The notes under the pieces were generated by a model. The model worked only from the letters and a program-made list of their open reading frames with translations, searched no databases and was not told the origin of the DNA. Both the position numbers and the translations under genes were made by a program. This document shows positions 2,940-48,164 of a stretch of 64,000 nt of DNA, piece after piece. Within the stretch, counting starts at the first letter, position 1. Each line of letters begins with the position of its first letter. Source of the stretch: Candidatus Poribacteria bacterium. GTDB taxonomy: Bacteria; Poribacteria; WGA-4E; WGA-3G. Location of the stretch: assembly GCA_003635315.1 (NCBI GenBank), contig PYJD01000040.1, positions 65,276-129,275 on the forward strand. The letters run 5' to 3'.

Positions 2940-3182
2940 TATACATTATATAATTCTCTTTGATAATCACATCCTGTATAAGTACATTTGATGTATAAGT
3001 ATACCAGATTGAATTGGGATGTGCAAACTATATTTGAGAGTATTCAATAGTAATTATCAGAGCGACTTAAGGAGTTCTCGTAATGTGAACTGATCATATA
3101 GAACTTAGTGCTAAAAACCCTCTATTTTATTAGTTTTTCGGTCTTTACATATGTGATAATTATACTTCATATCGTTAAAAAT

Positions 3183-3212
3183 GTTACACTTTTTGACACA
3201 TTGTGTGTCATT
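3183..3212. promoter_or_regulatory. repeat-family core motif site 1 (palindrome TGACACA-ttg-TGTGTCA plus GTTACAC), minus orientation, 244 nt upstream of the cysC start
   Basis: The sequence 'gttacactttttgacacattgtgtgtcatt' is identical over 35 nt to the site at 38899. It is the reverse complement of the core inside the 400-nt repeats. It also contains TTGACA. Confidence 0.5.
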
Positions 3213-3542
3213 AGTAAAACGGTTGTCCGCCCTGTCACAGTCTGCGTTCATCGGTGTTTTTTTAGAAGAATTGAAATTCTTATATTGAGTGATTTTGTGT
3301 CCTTCTTCTTTTTTATTTCTTTAATTTTTGTGACTATCTGATACAGACATTTTAATACATTTTCTAAATGATAATATCTCATCATTGGAACATAACCTTT
3401 TAGGGTGTATCCTATTAGATGACATCCGCAAAAACCATCTATGCAGCTGTTTTTCTCAGAAATAGTATAGGTGATGCTGTTTTTGTTTTTAAGATTAATT
3501 TGAAAGTATTGGATAGTCATAATATAGATTCTCTATTTATGT

Positions 3543-3569
3543 AAAAAGTTACGAAATCGTAACTTTTTT
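3543..3569. terminator. bidirectional intrinsic terminator-like hairpin (A-run, 7-bp stem GTTACGA/TCGTAAC, T-run)
   Basis: 'aaaaaGTTACGAaatTCGTAACttttt' is a perfect hairpin flanked by A5 and T6 in the gene-free region. Confidence 0.4.
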
Positions 3570-4540
3570 CTGTCACCTCAATTTTAGTATAGTCGCTGTT
3601 AGGTCTGTCCCCATCTATGTTTACAGCCAATTTACGAATTTCTGTAAAAAAAATAAAAAAGTTCTCATGATAGTTTTCTTAACACTTTATTTCCTTATAA
3701 TGATGTGTGAGATTAACATTTGTATATCTGTGTATATTTTTTAATCATATTGGTTTGTATTCTATTTAGTATTAGTATTCGTATAATATTTATTCTCTAT
3801 ATGTTATTGTAACGTATATTTACTCTTGTGTCAATCTCTTTTCGTATATGTGATGTCTGTATTTTAAAATTCTTCAATTTATTTTTTAAAACTACGAAGA
3901 AATTATAACGTCAATCTTTAGAAGGATTATTTTCGTAGAATCTGCATGAGTATTCTATAATCCTAACGCATCACTGCCAACACACTCTTCTCAGCGTCAG
4001 AATAGGGCGGTGGTGCGTCTCAGATCTTACCATAGGCGTCAATTCACGGATTCTTCAATCATATTTGTGTGATTTATACTCCTCTTGTAGGGAATCAACG
4101 CAGCATGCACCTATGGCATGCTGCGGGTAGAGGAACGGAACCCGCCACCCCAAAAATCAACACTAAACAAAACCACTCACCAAACACCACCCCCTCTTTT
4201 CCGCGTTGTCTACAAAATCCGCAATTCAGAAAACAAACAAAAAACCTGATACATAAATAAAAAATAAATTGAACAAAACCCAACCACAAACAACTAAATA
4301 ACATAAGACGAATAAATTCAGCAAATTTACTTGTCAAAATCATATTATATACGTACAATATATATTAACGATTGTTTATTTTAAGTTGATCAGGTTCGTA
4401 GGGTGAGGGTCCCTCGCCCGTTGTTTCAATATATAGCAATGGGCAAGATAAAAGCATCACCAAATATCTGATTTATGAGATATGTTAAACTTAAAAATCA
4501 TAACCTTAAATAAGAAAGAAATAATAAGAGAATTAATGAT

Positions 4541-4942
4541 GACTACCTATAAAAACGATCCTAAATACCACAACTATCTTTATGTCAAAAAATCAACTAT
4601 AATACGTAGGTTGAAATTGTCAAAATTCACAAGGACAACAAAAACACAAAATCACACTTTTTGCAAATTCTTAAAAATCTATTTCAAAGTGGAGTAAAGT
4701 CAGTCTATGACAGAGGTTAGAGGGGTAATTAACACCAATTTCAATGACACAGAATGTGTCAAAAAGTGTAACTTTTTTCACTTTTTCAGCACTTTTTCAC
4801 CACATGGAAAAATCCAACAATTTCACAATTTTTCATTGGGGAATTTAGGATTAAAAGTCTGTTTTTGCACCTTATTAGGTTGACCGTATATTAGGATTAA
4901 AAGTTATATTTACGACTATTAGTTCTAATACAATTTTTTAAC
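4541..4942 (+). repeat. long copy 1 of a roughly 400-nt noncoding repeat family (about 80-85% identical to 46244..46633)
   Basis: Nucleotide-level conservation in blocks (for example a roughly 100-nt block at about 4843-4940 that is about 95% identical) with indels that break any common reading frame. It begins with a conserved RBS and ATGATGACTAyCTAyAAAAACGATCCTAAATAC. It contains core motif 4743..4772. Confidence 0.75.
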
Positions 4943-5039
4943 ATAAAGACTTGTATTTTAATTTGGTTTTATGAGTATAACATGTTATTATTTTAACTAT
5001 AAAAACAAGATTTTATTATAACATTTTTGGAGGTATTTT

Positions 5040-8087: not shown

Positions 8088-10535
8088 ATGATTCCTATCG
8101 TAGAACAAGCCTTAGAATACGATAAAGTCAAAGTACTCCTAAAAAAACATACTGTCTCAGAGATGGGAAATATTCGGGTTGAGAACCTTTCCCCCTCTAA
8201 GTCTCTGGACTTAATTCGTCACGATTTGACACTATGTTCAGAGGTTAAGAAATTTCAACAACGTTGTGGAGACATTCCTTTAACAGGATTATCAGATATC
8301 AGCAAGACGCTAATCCATGCTTCTAAAACGGGTACGATTTTAGATCCAGAAGAACTTCTAAATATTGCTAAAGTTGCTCAACTCCCCTCTCAAATAAAGA
8401 AAAAGACTTATAATCAAAACCAAGATGAATTCCCATACTTTTTTGATATTGTTAGAACTCTCCCATCGTTCGACGAACTTGTTGACACCATCAACAATTG
8501 TATTAGTATGGAAGGTATTTTACTTGACCGTGCAAGTAAAGAACTCCGCTCTATCCGTCAAAGACTCAGAAAAATACGTACAAATATACATGATAAGTTA
8601 GAGACAATTCTCCGTTCACCAGATCATCAAAAATCAATTCAAGAATCTGTCATCACATCCCGAAATAATCGATTCGTTATTCCAATCAAGCAAGATGCAA
8701 GGGCATTTTTCAACGGGGTTGTCCAAGGGCAATCCACCAGTGGCGCAACTTGCTTTATTGAACCATTATCCGTCGTTGAAATGAATAACTCATTACATGA
8801 TGCAACCGAAGCAGAACAACGTGAGATACGACGGATATTACTTGAACTAACTGACCAACTACGCGAACAATTACCAGAGCTTGAGCAAGCACTTAATCTA
8901 CTTGGCGATCTTGATTTCCTTAGTGCAAAAGCACGTTTCAGTCAAGAACTCAATGCCATTGAACCAAAAATAAATAAAGAAGGAAATGTTAATCTAATAA
9001 AAGCAAGGCATCCGCTACTGGAATTTCAAACGCGCCAAAACAGAGAATCTATACAGAAATCTGATGATCACATTACATCTGATGAAAAACAAAAATCAAA
9101 ATTACCCGAAAGGGTGATACCAACTAACGTTCATATAGGGAGAGATTTTAATACACTCGTAATTACGGGTCCGAATACTGGTGGAAAAACTGTTGTATTA
9201 AAAACTATCGGCTTACTTTGTATGATGCTACAATCTGGCCTTCACATCCCTGCTGCTCCAAATAGTGAACTACCTATTTTTGACCATATATTTGCAGATA
9301 TTGGTGATGACCAAGGGATCGAACATAATCTCAGTACTTTCTCATCACATATATCCAAAATAGCAGATATGCTGAAATCCATTGAAGAATCGGAATCAAC
9401 CAGTTCCTTAGTTCTGTTAGATGAAATCGGAGCAGGAACTGACCCAACTGAGGGTACTGCTCTTGGCATGGCAATTCTCTCTTGGCTATCTGAACGAAAT
9501 GTTAGCACAATTGTTACTACACATTATGGTGCTCTAAAAGCATTTACGCATACTCATCATAAGATGGAGAATGCATCTATGGAGTTTGATTCAACTACAC
9601 TCCGACCTACATATCATCTGAAGATCGGAGTTCCCGGTAGTAGCAACGCAATTAAGATTGCTGAACAACTCGGTATACCTAATAGTATTCTATCATCCGC
9701 TGAATCATTTTTTGGAAATAATAATATTGCTGTTGAAGATCTACTAATGGAATTACAGGGAACACAACAGGATTTAGAGACAGAACGCGAAGAGTTACAT
9801 GAAAAGATTAAAGCCTGTGAATCAGAACATCAGAAATATAGAGAACTAATTAATGCTTTTGATTCGGATCAAAAGACTATCCAAGAAGAAGCTGAAAAGG
9901 AAGCGTTCGAAATAATCTCATCTGCTCGGAAAACTGTTGATAACGTCGTTTCTGACATTCGACGTGAGCAAGCCTCCAAAGCAAGTATTCGGGAGGCGTT
10001 TAACAAAATTGAAAATGCAAAAAAACAGCTTAAACCTGATCCTCCTGAAATACCAAAAACAAGAAAAATACCCATTTTAAACATTGGAGACAAGGTACGA
10101 ATCATAAGGCTAAACCGATTCGGTGAGGTAACTGCTATTGCTAAACAAGGACAAACCCCTATACGCATCAGTGTCGGTAAAATGCAGATGAATCTTTCAT
10201 ATAACGACATAGATAACGTTATATCTAAAAAAGAATCACGACATCTTACCCCTTCTGTTCTTGAGTTACAACATAACAAGGCTAATGAAATAAAAGAAGA
10301 GCTTTATATCCATGGTATGCTTGTTAAAGAAGGTTTAGATTTAACTGATAAATATCTGGATGATGCTTATCTTGCCGGATTATTAAAGGTCAGAATTCTT
10401 CATGGAAAAGGCACTGGGGCATTAAGGAGTGCAATCCATCAAGCATTAAATGAAAACCCTCATGTGGGTGATTATGAATATGCCCCACCAAGTGAAGGTG
10501 GCGAAGGTGTGACAGTCGTAAAGTTCAAAGAATAA
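8088..10535 (+). CDS. mutS2: endonuclease MutS2
   Basis: 815 aa. It has the MutS ABC ATPase Walker A 'GPNTGGKTVVLKT', the 'LLDEIGAGTDPTEG' motif and a C-terminal Smr domain (LHGKGTGALRSAIHQAL). Confidence 0.9.
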   Translation: MIPIVEQALEYDKVKVLLKKHTVSEMGNIRVENLSPSKSLDLIRHDLTLCSEVKKFQQRCGDIPLTGLSDISKTLIHASKTGTILDPEELLNIAKVAQLPSQIKKKTYNQNQDEFPYFFDIVRTLPSFDELVDTINNCISMEGILLDRASKELRSIRQRLRKIRTNIHDKLETILRSPDHQKSIQESVITSRNNRFVIPIKQDARAFFNGVVQGQSTSGATCFIEPLSVVEMNNSLHDATEAEQREIRRILLELTDQLREQLPELEQALNLLGDLDFLSAKARFSQELNAIEPKINKEGNVNLIKARHPLLEFQTRQNRESIQKSDDHITSDEKQKSKLPERVIPTNVHIGRDFNTLVITGPNTGGKTVVLKTIGLLCMMLQSGLHIPAAPNSELPIFDHIFADIGDDQGIEHNLSTFSSHISKIADMLKSIEESESTSSLVLLDEIGAGTDPTEGTALGMAILSWLSERNVSTIVTTHYGALKAFTHTHHKMENASMEFDSTTLRPTYHLKIGVPGSSNAIKIAEQLGIPNSILSSAESFFGNNNIAVEDLLMELQGTQQDLETEREELHEKIKACESEHQKYRELINAFDSDQKTIQEEAEKEAFEIISSARKTVDNVVSDIRREQASKASIREAFNKIENAKKQLKPDPPEIPKTRKIPILNIGDKVRIIRLNRFGEVTAIAKQGQTPIRISVGKMQMNLSYNDIDNVISKKESRHLTPSVLELQHNKANEIKEELYIHGMLVKEGLDLTDKYLDDAYLAGLLKVRILHGKGTGALRSAIHQALNENPHVGDYEYAPPSEGGEGVTVVKFKE

Positions 10536-38582: not shown

Positions 38583-38898
38583 TTATCCCCTCTTTAAATA
38601 ATATCTGAGATCAAAATTAATTTATGATTTCAATATTAAGTTTGCTAAAAACGAAACGCAATTTTAATAAAACATTAGAATCATTAAATCTCAATAACGT
38701 GAGACTCTTAAAACTAAATAACCATGTTTATTGTAATACTCTATGGAATTGATTTCAACATTATATTATATCAAAATTATTGAATATCAGACGATAATAA
38801 TAAGAACACATCATTTGGTAAATACATTATTTTTTGTAAATTTATGTCTTTTTAATCAATCACAACAGTAATACATATACTATCGTTATGTTTAAAAT

Positions 38899-38928
38899 GT
38901 TACACTTTTTGACACATTGTGTGTCATT
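38899..38928. promoter_or_regulatory. repeat-family core motif site 3 (short inverted fragment), about 315 nt upstream of and co-oriented with the isomerase-nagB operon
   Basis: 'ctatcgttatgtttaaaatgttacactttttgacacattgtgtgtcatttgaaattg' is identical over 35 nt to the site at 3177-3211. Downstream similarity to repeat block D (cccgccagtcctacactgg). Confidence 0.5.
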
Positions 38929-39662
38929 TGAAATTGTGCTATCCCGCCAGTCCTACACTGGTTTTACAGCCACTTTTTTCAGGTAAGTAGAATTTACCAA
39001 AATGATGAATATTGTGTCTTTTACTCTTTTACATGTTCTCTGACTTTTGTTCTTTTGGATGGGCGATATTATACGCATCCATACTATCATAATCCATTTG
39101 ATCTGTCTGAATTTTATTTTCAATACACATTTATTCCTTAACATAATTTTTACGAGACTAAAGTATAGATATAACCACACTTGACTACAGAAATCTCTCC
39201 TTTTTGTTTAGCAAAAGTATAGTAGAACTACACAATATAATATTATATCTATTTATTTCTATTATGGCAACTCTTTTTAAATATTTTGATTAATCCTTTA
39301 GTTGTAAGCTGTTTTGGTCTTCTTCATTTTATTTTGAGTATTTTATAGTACATCTCACTAATCATATATTTGATTAGTATACCATTTTAATAATCGTATT
39401 TCCATTAACCGTTGTAAAGAAAGGCGGGAATCGGAATTCCTGCTACACAGGAGAGTGTGATAATGACATACCATTTAATGAGACGCAGCCAGATTGGATA
39501 GAGGGACCGTTGTCCGTTTCTCCGCATGGGAAATTGCCATCGTTGTGGGAGAGAAAAAACAGAACTTTTCACAGTAGATTTTATGCAAAATCAACAGAAA
39601 ATCCTACAGACAATAAGTTCTTTGGGTAATAACATATCTAAGAAATGGTATAAGACTCTTAT

Positions 39663-39715: not shown

Positions 39716-40501
39716 TTAGTCTCTATTGGACTTTATCTGCCCCCAAGATGTTGCCAGTTTATCCGTAGGTTCTACAGGAAGAAGATCTCCGTCCATAACA
39801 CTTTGTACTTCATCAGCATCAAGTGCTCTGTCATATACATATAGATCGTCAATATAGAATGTAGCTGCTCTATAGCCTGTTTTACCAATGTATAGTTTTT
39901 CAGCTCCTTGTGCATGCTTGGCAGGAACACCTATCTTCAATTGTTCTTCACCATTAATATAAAAGTGTAAAGTACCATCTTTCTTAATACCTGCAACATG
40001 GTACCACTGTTTCAATTCAAATAAACTACCTTCACCGGTTGGACCAGCACAACCTGTTCCTTGGTTTCCAGGATTGAAACGCCAATGTATATTTAATGAA
40101 TTTGGACAGATCCAGATCCCAGGTGATCTATCTGAACCAGGAGCTTTTTTCGCAATTATTTGACTCCAGGCACCGTTGTGCGCAGAAATGAAGTTTAACC
40201 AAAATAGGTAACTATTATCTTGATAATCTTCCAATTCTTTGAATGAATTTACCTGGACATCCGCATTGGCATCTCGAATTTCAAGTGAGCCTTTACCATA
40301 TTTTTTCTCACCAGTTGATATATCAGCATTCCCAACTATATTCGCATGGTTTCCACCGCCAGTTTCATCTTCGATTTTTCCTCCATCCTCTCTATCAAAA
40401 CCGAAGTATAAGATCAAACCCTGATCTTTAACCGCAGCAGGTGATGTCTGAATTGCCACAAATAGTAACAGTATTAATAGTGTATATATTGTATATTTCA
40501 T
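39716..40501 (-). CDS. secreted LamG-like (Laminin_G_3 / concanavalin-A-like lectin) domain protein, paralog 1, with C-terminal LATTWG tail
   Basis: 261 aa with a signal peptide. It has 'LILYFGFDREDGGKIEDETGGGNHA' and 'DDLYVYDRALDADEV', which are LamG jellyroll signatures. The C-terminus is 'LLPVEPTDKLATSWGQIKSNRD'. Confidence 0.75.
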   Translation of the reverse strand: MKYTIYTLLILLLFVAIQTSPAAVKDQGLILYFGFDREDGGKIEDETGGGNHANIVGNADISTGEKKYGKGSLEIRDANADVQVNSFKELEDYQDNSYLFWLNFISAHNGAWSQIIAKKAPGSDRSPGIWICPNSLNIHWRFNPGNQGTGCAGPTGEGSLFELKQWYHVAGIKKDGTLHFYINGEEQLKIGVPAKHAQGAEKLYIGKTGYRAATFYIDDLYVYDRALDADEVQSVMDGDLLPVEPTDKLATSWGQIKSNRD

Positions 40502-40630
40502 TTCATTCCTCCGTAGTCAGATTAAACCATTTCAGTATTGATTAAATATCCTATATTAGGTATAAAGTAAGTAAAAATGATAATAAATATAGGGACAGTA
40601 CATAATCTGTCCCTATATTATAGATTGTAA

Positions 40631-41449
40631 TTAATCTCTACTTGTCTTGACCTGTCCCCAAGTTGTTGTAAGTTTAGCTTGAGGTTGGACAGGAAGTAGA
40701 TCACCATCCATCACACTTGCCACTTCACCCTCATCAAGGGCACGGTCATATACATAAAGATCATCGAGAATAAACTTTGCTGAGTTATATCCCGTTCTTC
40801 CAATGTATAACCGCTCATTGCCTTGGGCATGGTCGGCGGGAACATTGTTTTGCTGCGTCCGTTTACCATTTACATAGAATGATATCTGACTACCTTTTTT
40901 CGAACCAGCGATATGATACCATTCACCTATCTCAAAAACAGAATCCTCACCAGTAGGACCTGCACAATGGGGACCTTGGTTACCCGGGTTAAATCGCCAA
41001 TGGATATGAAGAGGTATACGGCTACATGTCCATATACCTGGTGATCGATCTGAACCTGGAGCCTTCTTTGCAATGATCTGATCCCAACCCCCAGAGTTTG
41101 CTTTTGTGAAATTAACCCAAAAAAGGAATGTATTATCCTGATAGTCTTCTAATTCATTAAATGAATCTACCGTTACGCTTGAGGTATTTGAATCGCATAA
41201 TAACGCACCTTTGCCGTGCACAACATCATCAGTGACAATTTTCGCATCAGCAACAATTGTCGCATCATTTCCACTACCAGTTTCATCAATGATCTTACCA
41301 CCACTCTCTTTGTCAAAACTGAAGTAGAGGATTAAACCGTCGTCTTTAACAGCCGCACTTGCAGTGTGTAGCCCACCTATAAATAGGAATAGGACTGACA
41401 AATATACCAGTAATTTCATTTTTACCTCCGTGATTGAGTTATGCTCCAA
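40631..41449 (-). CDS. secreted LamG-like domain protein, paralog 2, with C-terminal LATTWG tail
   Basis: 272 aa (possibly starting at the internal MKLLV). The conserved core 'QIIAKKAPGSDRSPGIWTC...HIHWRFNPGNQGPHCAGPTGE' is shared with paralogs 1 and 3. The C-terminus is 'LLPVQPQAKLTTTWGQVKTSRD'. Confidence 0.75.
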   Translation of the reverse strand: MEHNSITEVKMKLLVYLSVLFLFIGGLHTASAAVKDDGLILYFSFDKESGGKIIDETGSGNDATIVADAKIVTDDVVHGKGALLCDSNTSSVTVDSFNELEDYQDNTFLFWVNFTKANSGGWDQIIAKKAPGSDRSPGIWTCSRIPLHIHWRFNPGNQGPHCAGPTGEDSVFEIGEWYHIAGSKKGSQISFYVNGKRTQQNNVPADHAQGNERLYIGRTGYNSAKFILDDLYVYDRALDEGEVASVMDGDLLPVQPQAKLTTTWGQVKTSRD

Positions 41450-41768
41450 TTTATTATCACTATAAAGAACAATTTTATAGTATCATTATACTATATTAGA
41501 GTAGTTTAAATGTCAAGAAAAAACAGGTTTATTTAGTTTTCTAAATTTCCAATACATTTTATCTATTCCGTTATTGTTTATATTGGTATCTTATATAGGT
41601 CTTTAGTTCCATCGGGACGGAATGTTTATAGAATAAATGCAAACCACCTCTCTTGAGATCCGACAAATGCCATATGGAGAATCTCGATTGCAGATTATAG
41701 TAGAGTGAATAAATAATGAGACATTTCAACTTTTTGCGAAGAACGTCCAGCGTAGGGGCGAGGTGACC

Positions 41769-41791
41769 TCGCCTATTCTAAAATGTTCCAT
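41769..41791. repeat. GC-rich palindromic motif CGTAGGGGCGAGGT-G-ACCTCGCC (one of three CGTAGGGG(C/T)GAGG copies)
   Basis: It is a perfect 8-bp inverted repeat GGCGAGGT/ACCTCGCC in the divergent LamG2/LamG3 intergenic region. Related copies lie at 41847-41860 and 4397-4420. Confidence 0.5.
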
Positions 41792-42238
41792 TAATTCAAA
41801 AAATTACTATAAATAAATATTTCGCTAATCCAGACCATAAAAACATCGTAGGGGCGAGGTTTCCCAACCCGTATATTACCGAAAATCTAAATAACCGATG
41901 AATTTTAAAACTAAATAACCTTCAAGAAAAACCGTTGATTGGAATTTTTATGTATGTATTACTTATTTTATTTTGTGGAGGATTACATGGTTATCTATTG
42001 GGAGAAATTGAATCTGAAAACGGTTGCATGAATTAGTTATTTTATTTATGATTTTAACTTGACAGATTTAATCCTATCTTGTAAAATTGTTTTAATTATA
42101 TGAAAAGTGTGTTTTCTTTAATCCTGAAGAAAATATACAGAATCCTAATAAATGCAACTGGTTCTCAGGATCGTATAAACAAGCTTTTCTCACCAAACAA
42201 AATAGTAGTTATTGTATATCATGAGGAGGAATTAACTC

Positions 42239-43018
42239 ATGCGTTTTTTCATTTATCTTTTTGTTGCTACACTCTTCTGTGTTGGCACTGTTCTCTCCAC
42301 AGAAGCTGCATTGGATGATAATCTCGCACTTTACTTCAGTTTTGATAAGGACATTGATGGTACAGTTTATGATGGAACTGGAAACGGAAATCACGGTACG
42401 CTGAATCTGGCAACTATTAATGCTGATGATAAAAAAGTCGGATTAGCATCATTAGAAATAAAAGATGCAAATGCCGTTGTCGAAGTTGAATCGTTTTTTG
42501 ACTTAGAAGTATACCAAGACAACAGTTTTGTTTTTTGGCTTAACTTTATCGCTGCTCATAATGGTGCTTGGAGTCAGATTTTTGCTAAAAAAGCTCCAGG
42601 GTCTGACCGTTCTCCAGGGGTCTGGATCTGTCCCAACTCTCTAAATATCCATTATAGATTTAATCCAGGTAACCGAGGTACAGGTTGTGTTGGTCCAGGA
42701 GGCGAGGGTCAATTATTTGAAACAAATAAATGGTATCATATTGCTGGTGTCAAAGAGAGTGGTAAATTTAGATTCTACATAGATGGTGCTCAAATTGAAG
42801 AACACGATGTACCGTCTCCACATGCTCAAGGTCCTGAAAAACTTTATATCGGGAAAACAGGCTATCGATCCGCTACTTTCCTCATGGATGACTTTTTCCT
42901 TTTCACAAGAGCAATTTCTGCCGATGAAGTCAATGCCATTAAGAATGGGCAACTCATTGCTGTTGAACCTGAGGATAAATTAACCACTACATGGGGTATC
43001 ATCAAAGACAAACAGTAG
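42239..43018 (+). CDS. secreted LamG-like domain protein, paralog 3, with C-terminal LATTWG tail
   Basis: 259 aa with a signal peptide and the RBS 'gaggagg'. It has the same conserved core and Cys pair (WICPNS…GCVGP). The C-terminus is 'LIAVEPEDKLTTTWGIIKDKQ'. Confidence 0.75.
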   Translation: MRFFIYLFVATLFCVGTVLSTEAALDDNLALYFSFDKDIDGTVYDGTGNGNHGTLNLATINADDKKVGLASLEIKDANAVVEVESFFDLEVYQDNSFVFWLNFIAAHNGAWSQIFAKKAPGSDRSPGVWICPNSLNIHYRFNPGNRGTGCVGPGGEGQLFETNKWYHIAGVKESGKFRFYIDGAQIEEHDVPSPHAQGPEKLYIGKTGYRSATFLMDDFFLFTRAISADEVNAIKNGQLIAVEPEDKLTTTWGIIKDKQ

Positions 43019-44434: not shown

Positions 44435-44663
44435 TTAAGTGAATTAATTAGGAAAATCCTACAATTTTAAGGCATAAATCCAGCAGATTTCTGAATATAT
44501 TTCAGTCTCATTGAAAGATAATAACATTTCTAATTGATAAACTCTCTTTTTTGTATCACAAACTTTCAGTTTTTTTCTTCCCTGTTTCATTCCTAACAGC
44601 CGGTAATGAAATAATCATAAATAGAAATGGTATAAGAATATGGTGGATTATGAATACTTAATA

Positions 44664-45897: not shown

Positions 45898-46105
45898 TCT
45901 GGTTGATTTGAGACTTGTTATAATGTGTCTTGCTCTGAATTGAAAATAAATTGAAGAATTATAAACAATCAAACATCACATATATGAAAAAGAGTTGACA
46001 GAATGGTAAACATACGTTACAATAACATATAGAAAATAAATAAAATACTCATGCTAATATATGTTGTAAGACAAAACAAGAAATTAAAGAATATATAGAC
46101 AGTTA

Positions 46106-46195
46106 TACAAATGACAAGAATACAATACATACTAATTAGACAATTAAGTATACAAATGACAAGAATACAATACATACTAATTAGACAATTAAGTA
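46106..46195. repeat. perfect 45-bp tandem direct repeat, 2 copies
   Basis: 'tacaaatgacaagaatacaatacatactaattagacaattaagta' is repeated twice head-to-tail in the AT-rich spacer. Confidence 0.9.
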
Positions 46196-46243
46196 CTAAG
46201 GTATCCATTAAGAGAACTTTTTAAATAAAAACAAGAGAAATAA

Positions 46244-46633
46244 ATGATGACTATCTACAAAAACGATCCTAAATACAAAAAAATATTTATGTCAAAAAAA
46301 CGACATTATTTGCAGGTTGGAATTATCAAAATCCGTAACGACACAAAAAACACAAAATCACACTTTTTGGAAATTCCTATAAAGTCAATTCAAAGTGGCG
46401 TAAAGTCAGTCTCTGACAGAGGTTAGAAGGGGTATTTACACCAATTTCAATACTACAGAATGTAGGAAAAAGTGTAACTTTTTTCCTTTTTCGACGAATT
46501 GAAGAATTCAACATTATCACAATTATTCATCAAGGAATTTAGGATTAAAAGTCTGTTTTTGCACCTTATTAAGTTGTCGTATATTAGGATTAATAGTTAT
46601 ATTTACGACTACGAGTTCCATTACAATTTTTAA
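46244..46633 (+). repeat. long copy 2 of the roughly 400-nt noncoding repeat family (partner of 4541..4942)
   Basis: It has the same block order A-F as copy 1. The initial 33 nt, ATGATGACTATCTACAAAAACGATCCTAAATAC, is near-identical. Frames then diverge. It contains the degenerate core motif 46449..46478. Confidence 0.75.
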
Positions 46634-46914
46634 ATGAAAATGTCTCTTTATTTTAGACTAAACTTTAGATTGTGAAGTATGAGATGACATCCAAATAAAC
46701 CTGTAATGCAACTTCATTCTTAGAATTGGTATAATACCATTTCTAATATTTCACGAATCTCTTTGTAGCATAAACTTTTAGTTTGTGCCACTCGTTCACT
46801 CTAATATGATCTCCTTTTCGGGCGGAGAACTCCATCACCCGTTATTCAAAATATTGGTCTGGTTAAAACAAAGAACGCTAAAAATATCTGAGTTATGAGA
46901 TTGGAATAAGATTG

Positions 46915-48096
46915 ATGGATAATACCCATAGATTCTATTGTATACATTATGCCGAAGTAGGTCTTAAGGGCAAAAATAGAGCATATTTTGAAAAAAAACT
47001 CGTAAAAAATATAAAATTATCCTTACAAGGCACTAAATACACAGAAGTGAAAAGACTTCACGATAGGATATTAGTACTGTTGGATCAGAGTACAGACATC
47101 TCTGCAATAGAACAACGTTTACGAGGGGTCATGGGAATTGCTCATTTTGAACTTGTTAATCTATCAGACAAGAACATGGCTGCAATTAAAGAGATGTCCC
47201 TAAAGTCAATCGAAGGTAAAGATTTTCAGTCCTTGAAAGTCGAAACAAAAAGGTCTGATAAGAATTTTCCATTAACATCACCTGAAATCAGCAAAGAAAT
47301 TGGTGGACACCTCATACAAAAAACTGGATGTCAGGCAGATATGCACAATCCTGATGTGACAGTACGTATTGATGTCTCACGTCATGATGTATATATATAT
47401 TCTGATAAACAGACTGGGATTGGGGGGTTACCGGTTGGTGTTAGCGGTAAAGTTCTTGTAATGCTTTCTGGCGGTATTGATTCACCTGTTGCAGCATGGC
47501 GAATGATTAAACGTGGAGCAAAGGCAGTATTTATTCATTTTTTTAGTTATCCTTATACAGATAAGGCTTCATTGGAAAAAGTAATGGAATTAGCACGTAT
47601 CCTTTCAGAATCTAATTATCGAAGTACCGTCTACCTAATTCCATTTGCAGATCTTCAACAAATTATAGTATCAGAGACACCTGCTCCTTTTCGGGTATTA
47701 CTGTATAGAAGGTTAATGACTCGGATTGCAGAACGTGTGGCAATACTTGCTGATGCCGAAGCACTTGTAACAGGTGAAAGTTTAGCACAAGTTGCTTCCC
47801 AAACACTTACAAACCTTAGATCAATCGAGTCAATTGCAGAAATTCCAATACTGCGACCCTTAATTGGTGATGATAAAGCAGATATAATTGAAAAGGCACA
47901 ACAGATAGGAACTTTTGATGTATCTACGCTTCCGCATCAGGATTGCTGTTCGTTATTTGTTCCAAAACACCCCGCAACCCGTGCTTCAGTAGAAGATTTA
48001 GATAATGCTGAAAAGGCGTTAGATATTTCCTTTCTTGTTGAAAAAGCAATACAGGGAATGGAAAAGAGGATTGTCTGTTTTGATTATGAGTATTAG
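46915..48096 (+). CDS. thiI: tRNA 4-thiouridine(8) synthase / thiamine-biosynthesis sulfur carrier protein ThiI
   Basis: About 393 aa with a THUMP domain and a PP-loop 'VLVMLSGGIDSPVAAW' (SGGxDS). Confidence 0.85.
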   Translation: MDNTHRFYCIHYAEVGLKGKNRAYFEKKLVKNIKLSLQGTKYTEVKRLHDRILVLLDQSTDISAIEQRLRGVMGIAHFELVNLSDKNMAAIKEMSLKSIEGKDFQSLKVETKRSDKNFPLTSPEISKEIGGHLIQKTGCQADMHNPDVTVRIDVSRHDVYIYSDKQTGIGGLPVGVSGKVLVMLSGGIDSPVAAWRMIKRGAKAVFIHFFSYPYTDKASLEKVMELARILSESNYRSTVYLIPFADLQQIIVSETPAPFRVLLYRRLMTRIAERVAILADAEALVTGESLAQVASQTLTNLRSIESIAEIPILRPLIGDDKADIIEKAQQIGTFDVSTLPHQDCCSLFVPKHPATRASVEDLDNAEKALDISFLVEKAIQGMEKRIVCFDYEY

Positions 48097-48164
48097 AGAT
48101 TGGATAAAAGATCATACTTCCTTAGAAATAGAAGAATCTAAAATGTAATATTCGGTTAAGATCC

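Follow-up and report, generated by a model that had tools for sequence, protein, structure and literature searches.

A noncoding, gene-facing repeat family of one Poribacteria clade as a candidate mobile element of promoter regions

We describe element E, a dispersed repeat found in a stretch of 64,000 nt of Candidatus Poribacteria DNA (assembly GCA_003635315.1, contig PYJD01000040.1, positions 65,276 to 129,275), hereafter the window. E is noncoding, belongs to a large family in a related genome and lies almost always upstream of a gene and on the same strand as that gene. With somewhat better than even confidence, and on the basis of sequence comparison, we favour the reading that E constitutes a non-autonomous, mosaic, gene-facing mobile upstream (promoter-region) element of one Poribacteria clade. 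The window is ordinary chromosomal DNA carrying mutS2, dnaG, rpoD, carB and murF, and its closest named ThiI and peroxiredoxin homologs come from Poribacteria (77-90% identical), the exact window ThiI and Prx proteins not being on record in protein look-ups. Poribacteria are uncultivated and, to our knowledge, nothing is known of their gene regulation; a literature search on Poribacteria intergenic repeats gave no relevant paper.

A first-pass annotation, made from the letters of the window, had proposed two long copies and two short inverted fragments of one repeat. The four sites are real, as a 24-nt core, ACANAATGTNNNAAAAAGTGTAAC, is found exactly at 3183-3206(-), 4749-4772(+), 38899-38922(-) and 46455-46478(+), while shuffles expect 0.02. 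The two long copies are ~82-85% identical and collinear over ~400 nt, with 82-89% identity per block, contain an identical 38-nt run (GGAATTTAGGATTAAAAGTCTGTTTTTGCACCTTATTA) and both open, as had been noticed, with AAGAGAA..ATGATGACTAYCTAYAAAAACGATCCTAAATAC. The reported internal duplication was also recovered: copy 1 holds TTAGGATTAAAAGT twice, 46 nt apart, and the duplicated motif TTAGGATTAA(A/T)AGT shows this 46-nt spacing in copies 1 and 2 alike. Other details had to be corrected. The bounds first given were too short, as copy 1, originally placed at 4541-4942, extends over ~4489-4949 and copy 2 over 46222-46634, followed by a fused MITE (miniature inverted-repeat transposable element) ending at 46734; the block named F, said to be ~95% identical, measures ~85-89%; and the two supposed short fragments of the long type, noted at 3170-3250 and 38885-38960, are instead members of diverged subfamilies, of B type at 3174-3310 and of C type at 38891-39042 (Table 1). 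A profile search (nhmmer) placed copy 1 at 4460-4983, and its right edge at 4949/4950 is the point where homology resumes with an ortholog that has no E (L063; loci from other genomes are designated L plus a number). The last ~25 nt of this copy (4925-4949) are a truncated left end of a separate MITE, Z, described below. The genes that face the four sites encode APS kinase (cysC), peroxiredoxin (prx), a xylose-isomerase-like TIM-barrel protein and ThiI, and the distances originally listed were roughly right: cysC lies 244 nt away, prx 268 nt from the core, the isomerase gene 317 nt and thiI ~435 nt.

E is noncoding DNA. All 23 full copies out of 23 have at least three stops in each of the six frames, gap-run lengths modulo 3 are 36 (0), 142 (1) and 58 (2), and mismatches per codon position are 392, 394 and 374, with no codon periodicity; a Pfam search of E gave no match. 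The frame-breaking indels described at the outset were in this way substantiated. If E derived from a protein-coding gene family in decay, or from a relic transposase open reading frame (ORF), this would account for the ribosome-binding-site-like AAGAGAA and the 11-codon ATGATGACT... start that follows it in nearly all copies. However, the ORF from ATGATGAC shifts frame after those 11 codons and ends at 10-64 aa depending on the copy. With no common reading frame, codon-position bias or protein homolog, a coding or pseudogene family was rejected, and we regard such an origin as hardly credible. The conserved "start" is complementary to conserved TTAGGATT blocks, therefore its conservation is at the nucleotide level: the 11-codon pseudo-start of the annotation holds as nucleotides, but not as a peptide. 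No known RNA was recognized either. Rfam at gathering score returned tRNAs only on all three window regions, and at permissive E-values (up to 10 or 1) it gave chance-level matches only on these regions and three full copies from the related genome presented next.

In a core scan of GTDB species genomes we found at least 46 loci, ~40 of them in the metagenome-assembled genome (MAG) CAZZBB01 and 3 in CBDBFU01, a further 2 of the 46 being chance matches. CAZZBB01 is a single MAG registered as "uncultured bacterium" and corresponds to a related species, with ~86% identity to the window in orthologous coding DNA, and CBDBFU01 is a Candidatus Poribacteria MAG. With at least 40 places occupied in one related Poribacteria MAG (CAZZBB01), the number of members is far above the four of the window, which establishes a large dispersed family; neither a recoverable ORF nor a restriction to four copies, the two sequence outcomes that were held to speak against the annotation, was observed. 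Additional copies are present in L047/48, L068 and L069, and an nhmmer profile built from 21 long copies gave 42 matches in the window and the listed loci. Identity among copies is mostly ~77-90% over alignments of ~190-490 nt. Four subfamilies, A to D, have in common a unit of ~150 nt, (G)ACACAAAAT ... AAATTCT ... CAG-N6-AC-N-G ... TTTAC ... AATG-hairpin-AAAAAGTGTAAC. Subfamily A is the long type, to which window copies 1 and 2 belong; the window copy at 3183 belongs to B; that at 38899 belongs to C, as do the CBDBFU01 copies (L011, L024, L031) and L069; and D was seen in CAZZBB01 only. No family member was found in phage or plasmid collections (blastn), viral contigs or JGI metagenome contigs, and the 11 matches of the core 24-mer in the JGI metagenome scan were all unrelated, several being a DPANN-like GTAAC repeat motif. 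The core pattern also matches DPANN/Woesearchaeota-like contigs (L027, L052, L054, L056, L061) at GTAACACAAAATGTAACAAAAAGTGTAAC, beside CGCCCCCACGAGATG...AACCTTAGGTTAAGGTT; this motif is unrelated to E, yet conserved in its own right.

The most regular property of E is its orientation. Simple ORF calls around every copy put the downstream gene on the same strand in 36 of 37 cases, while the upstream genes lie 15 on the same and 11 on the opposite strand; in tandem gene contexts, the ratio of same to opposite strand is about 15 to 0. Considering the subfamilies A-D together, the downstream gene is co-oriented in 39 of 41 cases from at least four genomes, so the co-orientation first noticed at four genes holds for the family at large. 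The two exceptions are doubtful ORFs: each either overlaps E itself or is the weaker alternative to an operon on the same strand. The 3' end of E thus points at a gene start in practically all cases. From the end of the core to the start codon there are 444 nt in the median (range 180-1170 nt), and E is usually placed just upstream of the gene's own ~70-110-nt proximal region. The downstream genes are functionally unrelated. They include genes for DciA, LptC, gamma-glutamyl transpeptidase, COX3, an ECF sigma factor, a heptosyltransferase, an aldo-keto reductase, an enolase-superfamily protein, PPDK, a cohesin/dockerin protein and several WD40 and LamG proteins, and therefore a pathway-specific riboswitch or regulon, which we had considered, is unlikely. 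In the MAG, E is often followed by LamG or WD40 genes. The window itself holds at 39716-43018 a cluster of three LamG-domain (Laminin_G_3) paralogs, one of them on the plus strand and the other two on the minus strand, and DNA repeats occur within this cluster.

Syntenic loci of relatives, collected through ThiI and peroxiredoxin homologs, allowed us to compare filled and empty sites. The spacer between the RNase HII gene and thiI measures 1014 nt in the window, where it carries the series X-Y-E-Z-REP, and in relatives without E at this place it measures 324 nt (L047/48, ThiI 93% identical), 106 nt (L069, 92%) and 64 nt (L049/50, 89%); the L047/48 spacer holds a REP-like element only. The closest relative, L068, shares 95% identity with the window in the coding sequences of thiI and GT9 as well as in the DNA that separates them, and it also has E upstream of thiI; the surviving 3' part of this E is 81% identical to that of the window and the rest of the region before thiI is unalignable. 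At the prx locus the window and L063 (Prx 94%) are homologous up to 3049 and again from 4950, with sharp edges, a 1.9-kb repeat mosaic in the window standing against 298 unrelated nt in L063. The same comparison shows the 90 nt preceding prx and the 110 nt preceding cysC to be conserved in the absence of E. At the isomerase locus the window has a C-type copy and L047/48 a full A-type copy in the same orientation, and the site is empty in L049 and L051, with spacers of 98-160 nt. Finally, in the MAG locus L028 1-853 (compared with window 46317-48164) E immediately precedes the heptosyltransferase gene and the intervening thiI is absent; all other relatives examined keep thiI beside that gene. 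Given these filled, empty and remodelled sites at the prx, thiI and isomerase loci, E was gained and exchanged on a species-level timescale, in agreement with the mobile or duplicated character proposed by the first-pass annotation. E-family DNA was inserted, replaced or converted as species diverged, and repeatedly at the same spacers.

Long E copies have ~430 nt common to all and a total length of 430-650 nt. Beyond the common part, similarity falls stepwise and copies end at differing points. A 17-nt inverted repeat (4577-4593/4933-4949) is confined to copy 1. The MITE-like option that had been raised is consistent with a short, noncoding element with many dispersed copies, but not with ends that have no terminal inverted repeats. 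Z, in turn, is a true MITE with terminal inverted repeats. It is a separate element that forms the 3' extension of most E copies, one Z being fused to each such copy; its length is 113-139 nt, its terminal inverted repeats are ATACCATTTCT/AGAAATGGTAT, and TA flanks most copies. In 572 kb of examined sequence there are 24 complete Z copies and 137 terminal-repeat matches. The sequence TGGTATAAT, which resembles an extended -10 at the unit's 3' end and was evaluated as a promoter, is actually the Z terminus plus its flank, and an IS630-like gene in L047, evaluated as autonomous partner, only adjoins a complete Z copy.

Two other modules complete the mosaic. X is a promoter module with four aligned copies, each of which faces an E-family copy and a gene, and its hexamers TTGACA-17-TACAAT/TAAAAT are kept in three of the four. 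The REP-like element at 4397-4420 is part of the mosaic and not of E; similar elements also flank E in L020, L029 and L036, and the one that fills the thiI spacer of L047 lies at ~9800-9900. The 0.9-kb B-type unit, which embeds both Z and X, is 86% identical to L003 6828-7708 and 82% to L002 10-505, non-syntenic loci of the related MAG. The spacers of the window genome are largely made of repeat modules: further intergenic repeats at 39475-39646, 41695-41815 and 44501-44641 have 74-90% identity to the MAG loci L003, L014, L017, L020, L022, L023 and L046, and between X and copy 2 there is a perfect 45-nt tandem duplication (46104-46193; TATACAAATGACAAGAATACAATACATACTAATTAGACAATTAAG, twice). At 3950-4300, within an A+T-rich spacer, a G+C-rich island that looks structured precedes a C/A-rich tract; it had no match in any locus examined nor in Rfam, and its sole ORF (87 aa) looks spurious.

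Table 1. Positions of E-family members and of associated modules (window coordinates unless a locus is named)
Feature	Position	Strand	Remarks
E copy 1 (A-type, long)	4489..4949	+	blastn against more than 35 MAG copies, 77-90% identity; covarying hairpin 4745-4761, core 24-mer 4749-4772
E copy 2 (A-type)	46222..46634	+	hairpin 46451-46467, core 46455-46478
B-type member	3174..3310	-	core 3183-3206; nhmmer core profile E-value 1.9e-26; co-oriented with cysC
B-type repeat unit, 0.9 kb	3126..4033	-	embeds B core, Z MITE (~3348-3473) and X promoter module
C-type member	38891..39042	-	core 38899-38922; E-value 1.9e-29; co-oriented with sugar-phosphate isomerase-like gene
Z MITE fused to 3' end of copy 2	46626..46744	+	right terminal inverted repeat AGAATTGGTAT(AA) 46722-46734
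Inverted solo repeat TAATACCATTTCT	46732-46744		abutting Z
Free-standing Z copy	44521-44633		
Z copy in relative	L047 15650-15764		
REP-like element (GTAGG + GC-rich hairpin)	4397..4420	+	8-bp stem 4401-4419; 70 nt upstream of copy 1
Second REP-like GC hairpin	46830..46851	+	between copy 2/Z and thiI; inserted in native thiI-proximal sequence (compared with L068, L069)
X promoter module	45940..46117	+	A-rich UP-like stretch; TTGACA-17-TACAAT 45995-46023, toward E and thiI
X module, inverted	3750..3889	-	TTGACA-17-TACAAT 3834->3806, toward B-type copy and cysC
Further X copy	L003 6960-7150		
Further X copy	L023 5800-5940		

Conservation along E is uneven. Pairwise identity reaches 0.91-0.94 in CTATAAAAACGATCC, in the central ~135 nt and in GGATTAAAGGTCTGTT, and drops to 0.18-0.5 in three indel-rich linkers. 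The folding suggested by the annotation gave support to one hairpin of 7 bp, UGACACA-NAA-UGUGUCA, and to a weaker one of 5 bp (77% paired), and to no structure over most of the length. In the first hairpin 93% of the cells are paired, with GC/CG, AU/UA/CG and CG/UA as alternatives; copy 2 has the variant CTACA/TGTAG, with compensatory changes relative to copy 1. This covariation and paired fraction were reached by 0 of 500 shuffles, a control that is inflated by the relatedness of the copies, although the stem is found in three distinct versions. The hairpin is preceded by a conserved TTTAC and sits in the middle of the element in A-type copies. RNAalifold, applied to 23 A-type copies and to 45 cores of all subfamilies, recovered one or two small hairpins and no further consensus structure. 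A long-range pairing GATCCTAAAT/ATTTAGGATT was discarded as support: the best-conserved outer blocks are complementary, but both sides are invariant.

These structures raise the possibility that E is a structured cis-regulatory RNA, that is, a long 5' leader transcribed from an X or type-(i) promoter through E into the gene, which would respond to a shared signal or factor and put ~40 unrelated genes under one post-transcriptional control. Strict sense polarity, the covarying hairpin and the excess of G-U pairs on the sense strand (17 vs 7 on the antisense strand) are consistent with it, as are a ACACUUUUU/AAAAAGUGU helix in which 8 cells show wobble-keeping transitions and none U-to-C (~3 independent events), and the arrangement of conserved blocks between indel-rich linkers, some of which lie between complementary U-rich and A-rich arms. 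Strong conserved sigma-70 promoters are also present 130-600 nt upstream of three window copies, and copy 1 folds ~2 standard deviations better than shuffles (z ~-2), but its antisense strand folds equally well. The limited RNAalifold consensus and the lack of an Rfam match speak against a leader, and so does the 81% identity of same-locus copies in 95%-identical genomes, unlike a constrained riboswitch. Moreover, at prx, thiI, the isomerase gene and L069, E is separated from the gene by the native proximal region or by an obvious proximal promoter; its position above a conserved native proximal region at three loci argues against a simple 5' untranslated leader made from the native promoter. 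We consider a leader RNA a rather unlikely alternative.

Regarding promoters, the tRNA-Gly gene has a perfect TTGACA-17-TATAAT, so the organism uses canonical sigma-70 promoters. No sense promoter-like site of at least 10/12 was found at profile positions 0-350 (40 copies), and sense sites cluster just downstream of E, 19 of them at positions 550-700. On the antisense strand a TTGACA is conserved and exceeds the threshold in 17 of the 40 copies. A sigma-54 reading of GG-N-TTGCA in the conserved block was dropped, the spacing being one base short by eye. The absence of sense sites at positions 0-350 bears on a further proposal, in which E copies would be independent small or medium RNA genes (~150-430 nt) with their own promoter and terminator that merely adjoin other genes. 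Its arguments would be TATATAAT, conserved at the 5' edge of many copies, the conserved internal blocks, and a core that ends in two adjacent hairpins and then a T run. Nevertheless, the 5' edge shows no acceptable -35 hexamer, there is no G+C-rich intrinsic terminator, both ends are variable, and RNA genes of this kind would have no need of the orientation toward the next gene that is seen in 39 of 41 cases, all of which makes the proposal very improbable. Among the regulatory-leader, small-RNA and MITE-like options first put forward, the noncoding, mobile and gene-facing nature of the element is retained, and no evidence was obtained for E as an independent small RNA gene.

The blocks may also be read as DNA. 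E would then be an upstream regulatory cassette, a putative array of protein sites and/or bent DNA, spread by mobile DNA, through which a lineage-specific factor or nucleoid protein would control many genes. Candidate sites are three TGTCAAAA motifs together with phased A and T tracts, T5 tracts with an 11-nt period in CACTTTTTCAGCACTTTTTCAC, and three TTAGGAT/ATCCTAA motifs, of which two direct ones flank a promoter-like site and one inverted lies ~330 nt upstream. In this sense, the best-conserved blocks are short repeated motifs, and E is found immediately upstream of native core promoter regions. However, arrays or bent DNA of this type usually tolerate both orientations and would leave the strict polarity unexplained; the palindrome changes its sequence but keeps complementarity, which fits a nucleic-acid hairpin and not a dimeric protein site; and no candidate binding protein was identified. 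A cassette acting at the DNA level is in our opinion quite improbable.

Returning to E as a mobile upstream element, a possible explanation for its behavior is the following. The unit would be transcriptionally directional, and this would be the origin of polarity: copies aimed at the 3' ends of genes may be selected against, whereas copies that face gene starts may be tolerated or kept as promoter or regulatory input. We see directional transcription, together with selection against antisense read-out, as the most likely origin of this orientation bias. Candidates for the sense promoter are X or a type-(i) site upstream, TTTGCA-17-TATATT within E, and the extended -10 TGGTATAAT at the Z terminus. 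The covarying hairpin and the conserved blocks might be sites read in the transcript, or else recognition sites in single-stranded DNA or for proteins, used for copying. Spread would probably take place via a transposase acting in trans and/or by ectopic recombination between copies, which is the least supported step.

Several observations weigh against this reading. The strong, uneven conservation of ~170 central nt exceeds the need of a passive selfish element or of a bare promoter. The sense site TTTGCA-17-TATATT in the conserved 3' block is weak (9/12) and is found in about half of the copies, E carries three antisense TTGACA hexamers, and upstream of E there are 20 sense vs 17 antisense promoter-like matches; with such a balance, and with the antisense TTGACA, sequence alone does not demonstrate directional transcription. 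As for mobility, no inverted repeat is common to the E ends across copies, no target-site duplication is readable at E, filled and empty sites differing by multi-element remodelling, and E could not be connected with any transposase or other partner protein. In addition, the copies were gathered with an exact core pattern, and the invariance of the core is partly a product of this collection.

E could also be a new orientation-specific mobile regulatory module, whether by hairpin-guided, site- and strand-specific insertion at promoter-proximal sites, or as a dispersed cis-acting RNA or DNA control element that wires at least 40 unrelated genes into a lineage-specific regulon. The recurrence of different subfamilies at the thiI and isomerase spacers in separate lineages fits either version, and so do central blocks that remain 91-94% identical while orthologous positions turn over. 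We judge this distinctly unlikely.

Within the preferred reading of a mobile upstream element, E would be conceptually closest to putative mobile promoters (Matus-Garcia, Nijveen & van Passel 2012, PMC3488235) and to promoter-carrying MITEs. Putative mobile promoters are 50-100-nt matches located within 100-150 nt before the start codon, in families of 2-93 members, most of which are neither Rfam families nor known insertion sequences (PMC3488235). Like them, E is similar noncoding DNA (at least 80% identity) upstream of non-homologous genes in one genome, its family size of at least 40 is within that range, and it corresponds to no known Rfam family or insertion sequence; unlike them, it measures 430-650 nt, has its core 180-1170 nt from the start codon and is usually placed upstream of the native proximal region. 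Its length, the lack of terminal inverted repeats, the position above the native proximal region and the near-absolute polarity set E apart from both groups. The Correia elements (CREE) of Neisseria and the enterobacterial ERIC are MITEs that carry outward promoters or regulatory sites (cited in PMC3488235). E is likewise small, non-autonomous, high-copy, intergenic and near gene starts. Correia and ERIC elements are able to alter transcription and form hairpins in transcripts, and they have terminal inverted repeats, defined target duplications and insertions in both orientations. In contrast, in E neither terminal inverted repeats nor target duplications were seen and the element is strictly polar, whereas Z fits the definition of a MITE.

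Other repeat families share single traits with E. The REP units that make up BIMEs are 35-40 nt long, and BIMEs mostly follow genes or separate the genes of an operon. As in BIMEs, REP clusters and RIMEs, the spacers studied here have modular short repeats in variable order, REP-like GTAGG hairpins included, but E is a long module of unique sequence upstream of genes. MIRUs are mycobacterial tandem units of 40-100 nt inside operons that overlap stop and start codons; they resemble E as noncoding repeats whose orientation follows the transcription of neighbouring genes, although E is present in a single copy per locus, measures at least 430 nt and resides in promoter-side spacers. T-box leaders and expanded riboswitch families keep structure over sequence and precede functionally coherent genes. 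Like them, E occurs tens of times per genome in front of genes and on their strand, but it keeps sequence (80-90%), shows little structure and is followed by unrelated genes. The PATEs and REP elements derived from IS200/IS605 lack terminal inverted repeats, have an imperfect subterminal hairpin at each end and insert strand-specifically next to a fixed 4-5-nt target; by comparison, the polarity of E is tied to the downstream gene rather than to one strand as such, and the hairpin of A-type copies is in the middle of the element.

The mosaic spacers of 0.5-2 kb break assemblies and mislead gene callers, as some copies hold spurious ORFs of 60-147 aa. A gene-facing repeat that is exchanged between species 5-15% apart is also a marker of rapid regulatory evolution. 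If E has promoter or operator activity, it would be among the largest and longest families of mobile promoters described and would offer a natural experiment in the creation of regulons by mobile DNA. If, in turn, E wires unrelated genes into a lineage-specific regulon, it would constitute a bacterial counterpart of the transposon-driven rewiring of regulatory networks.

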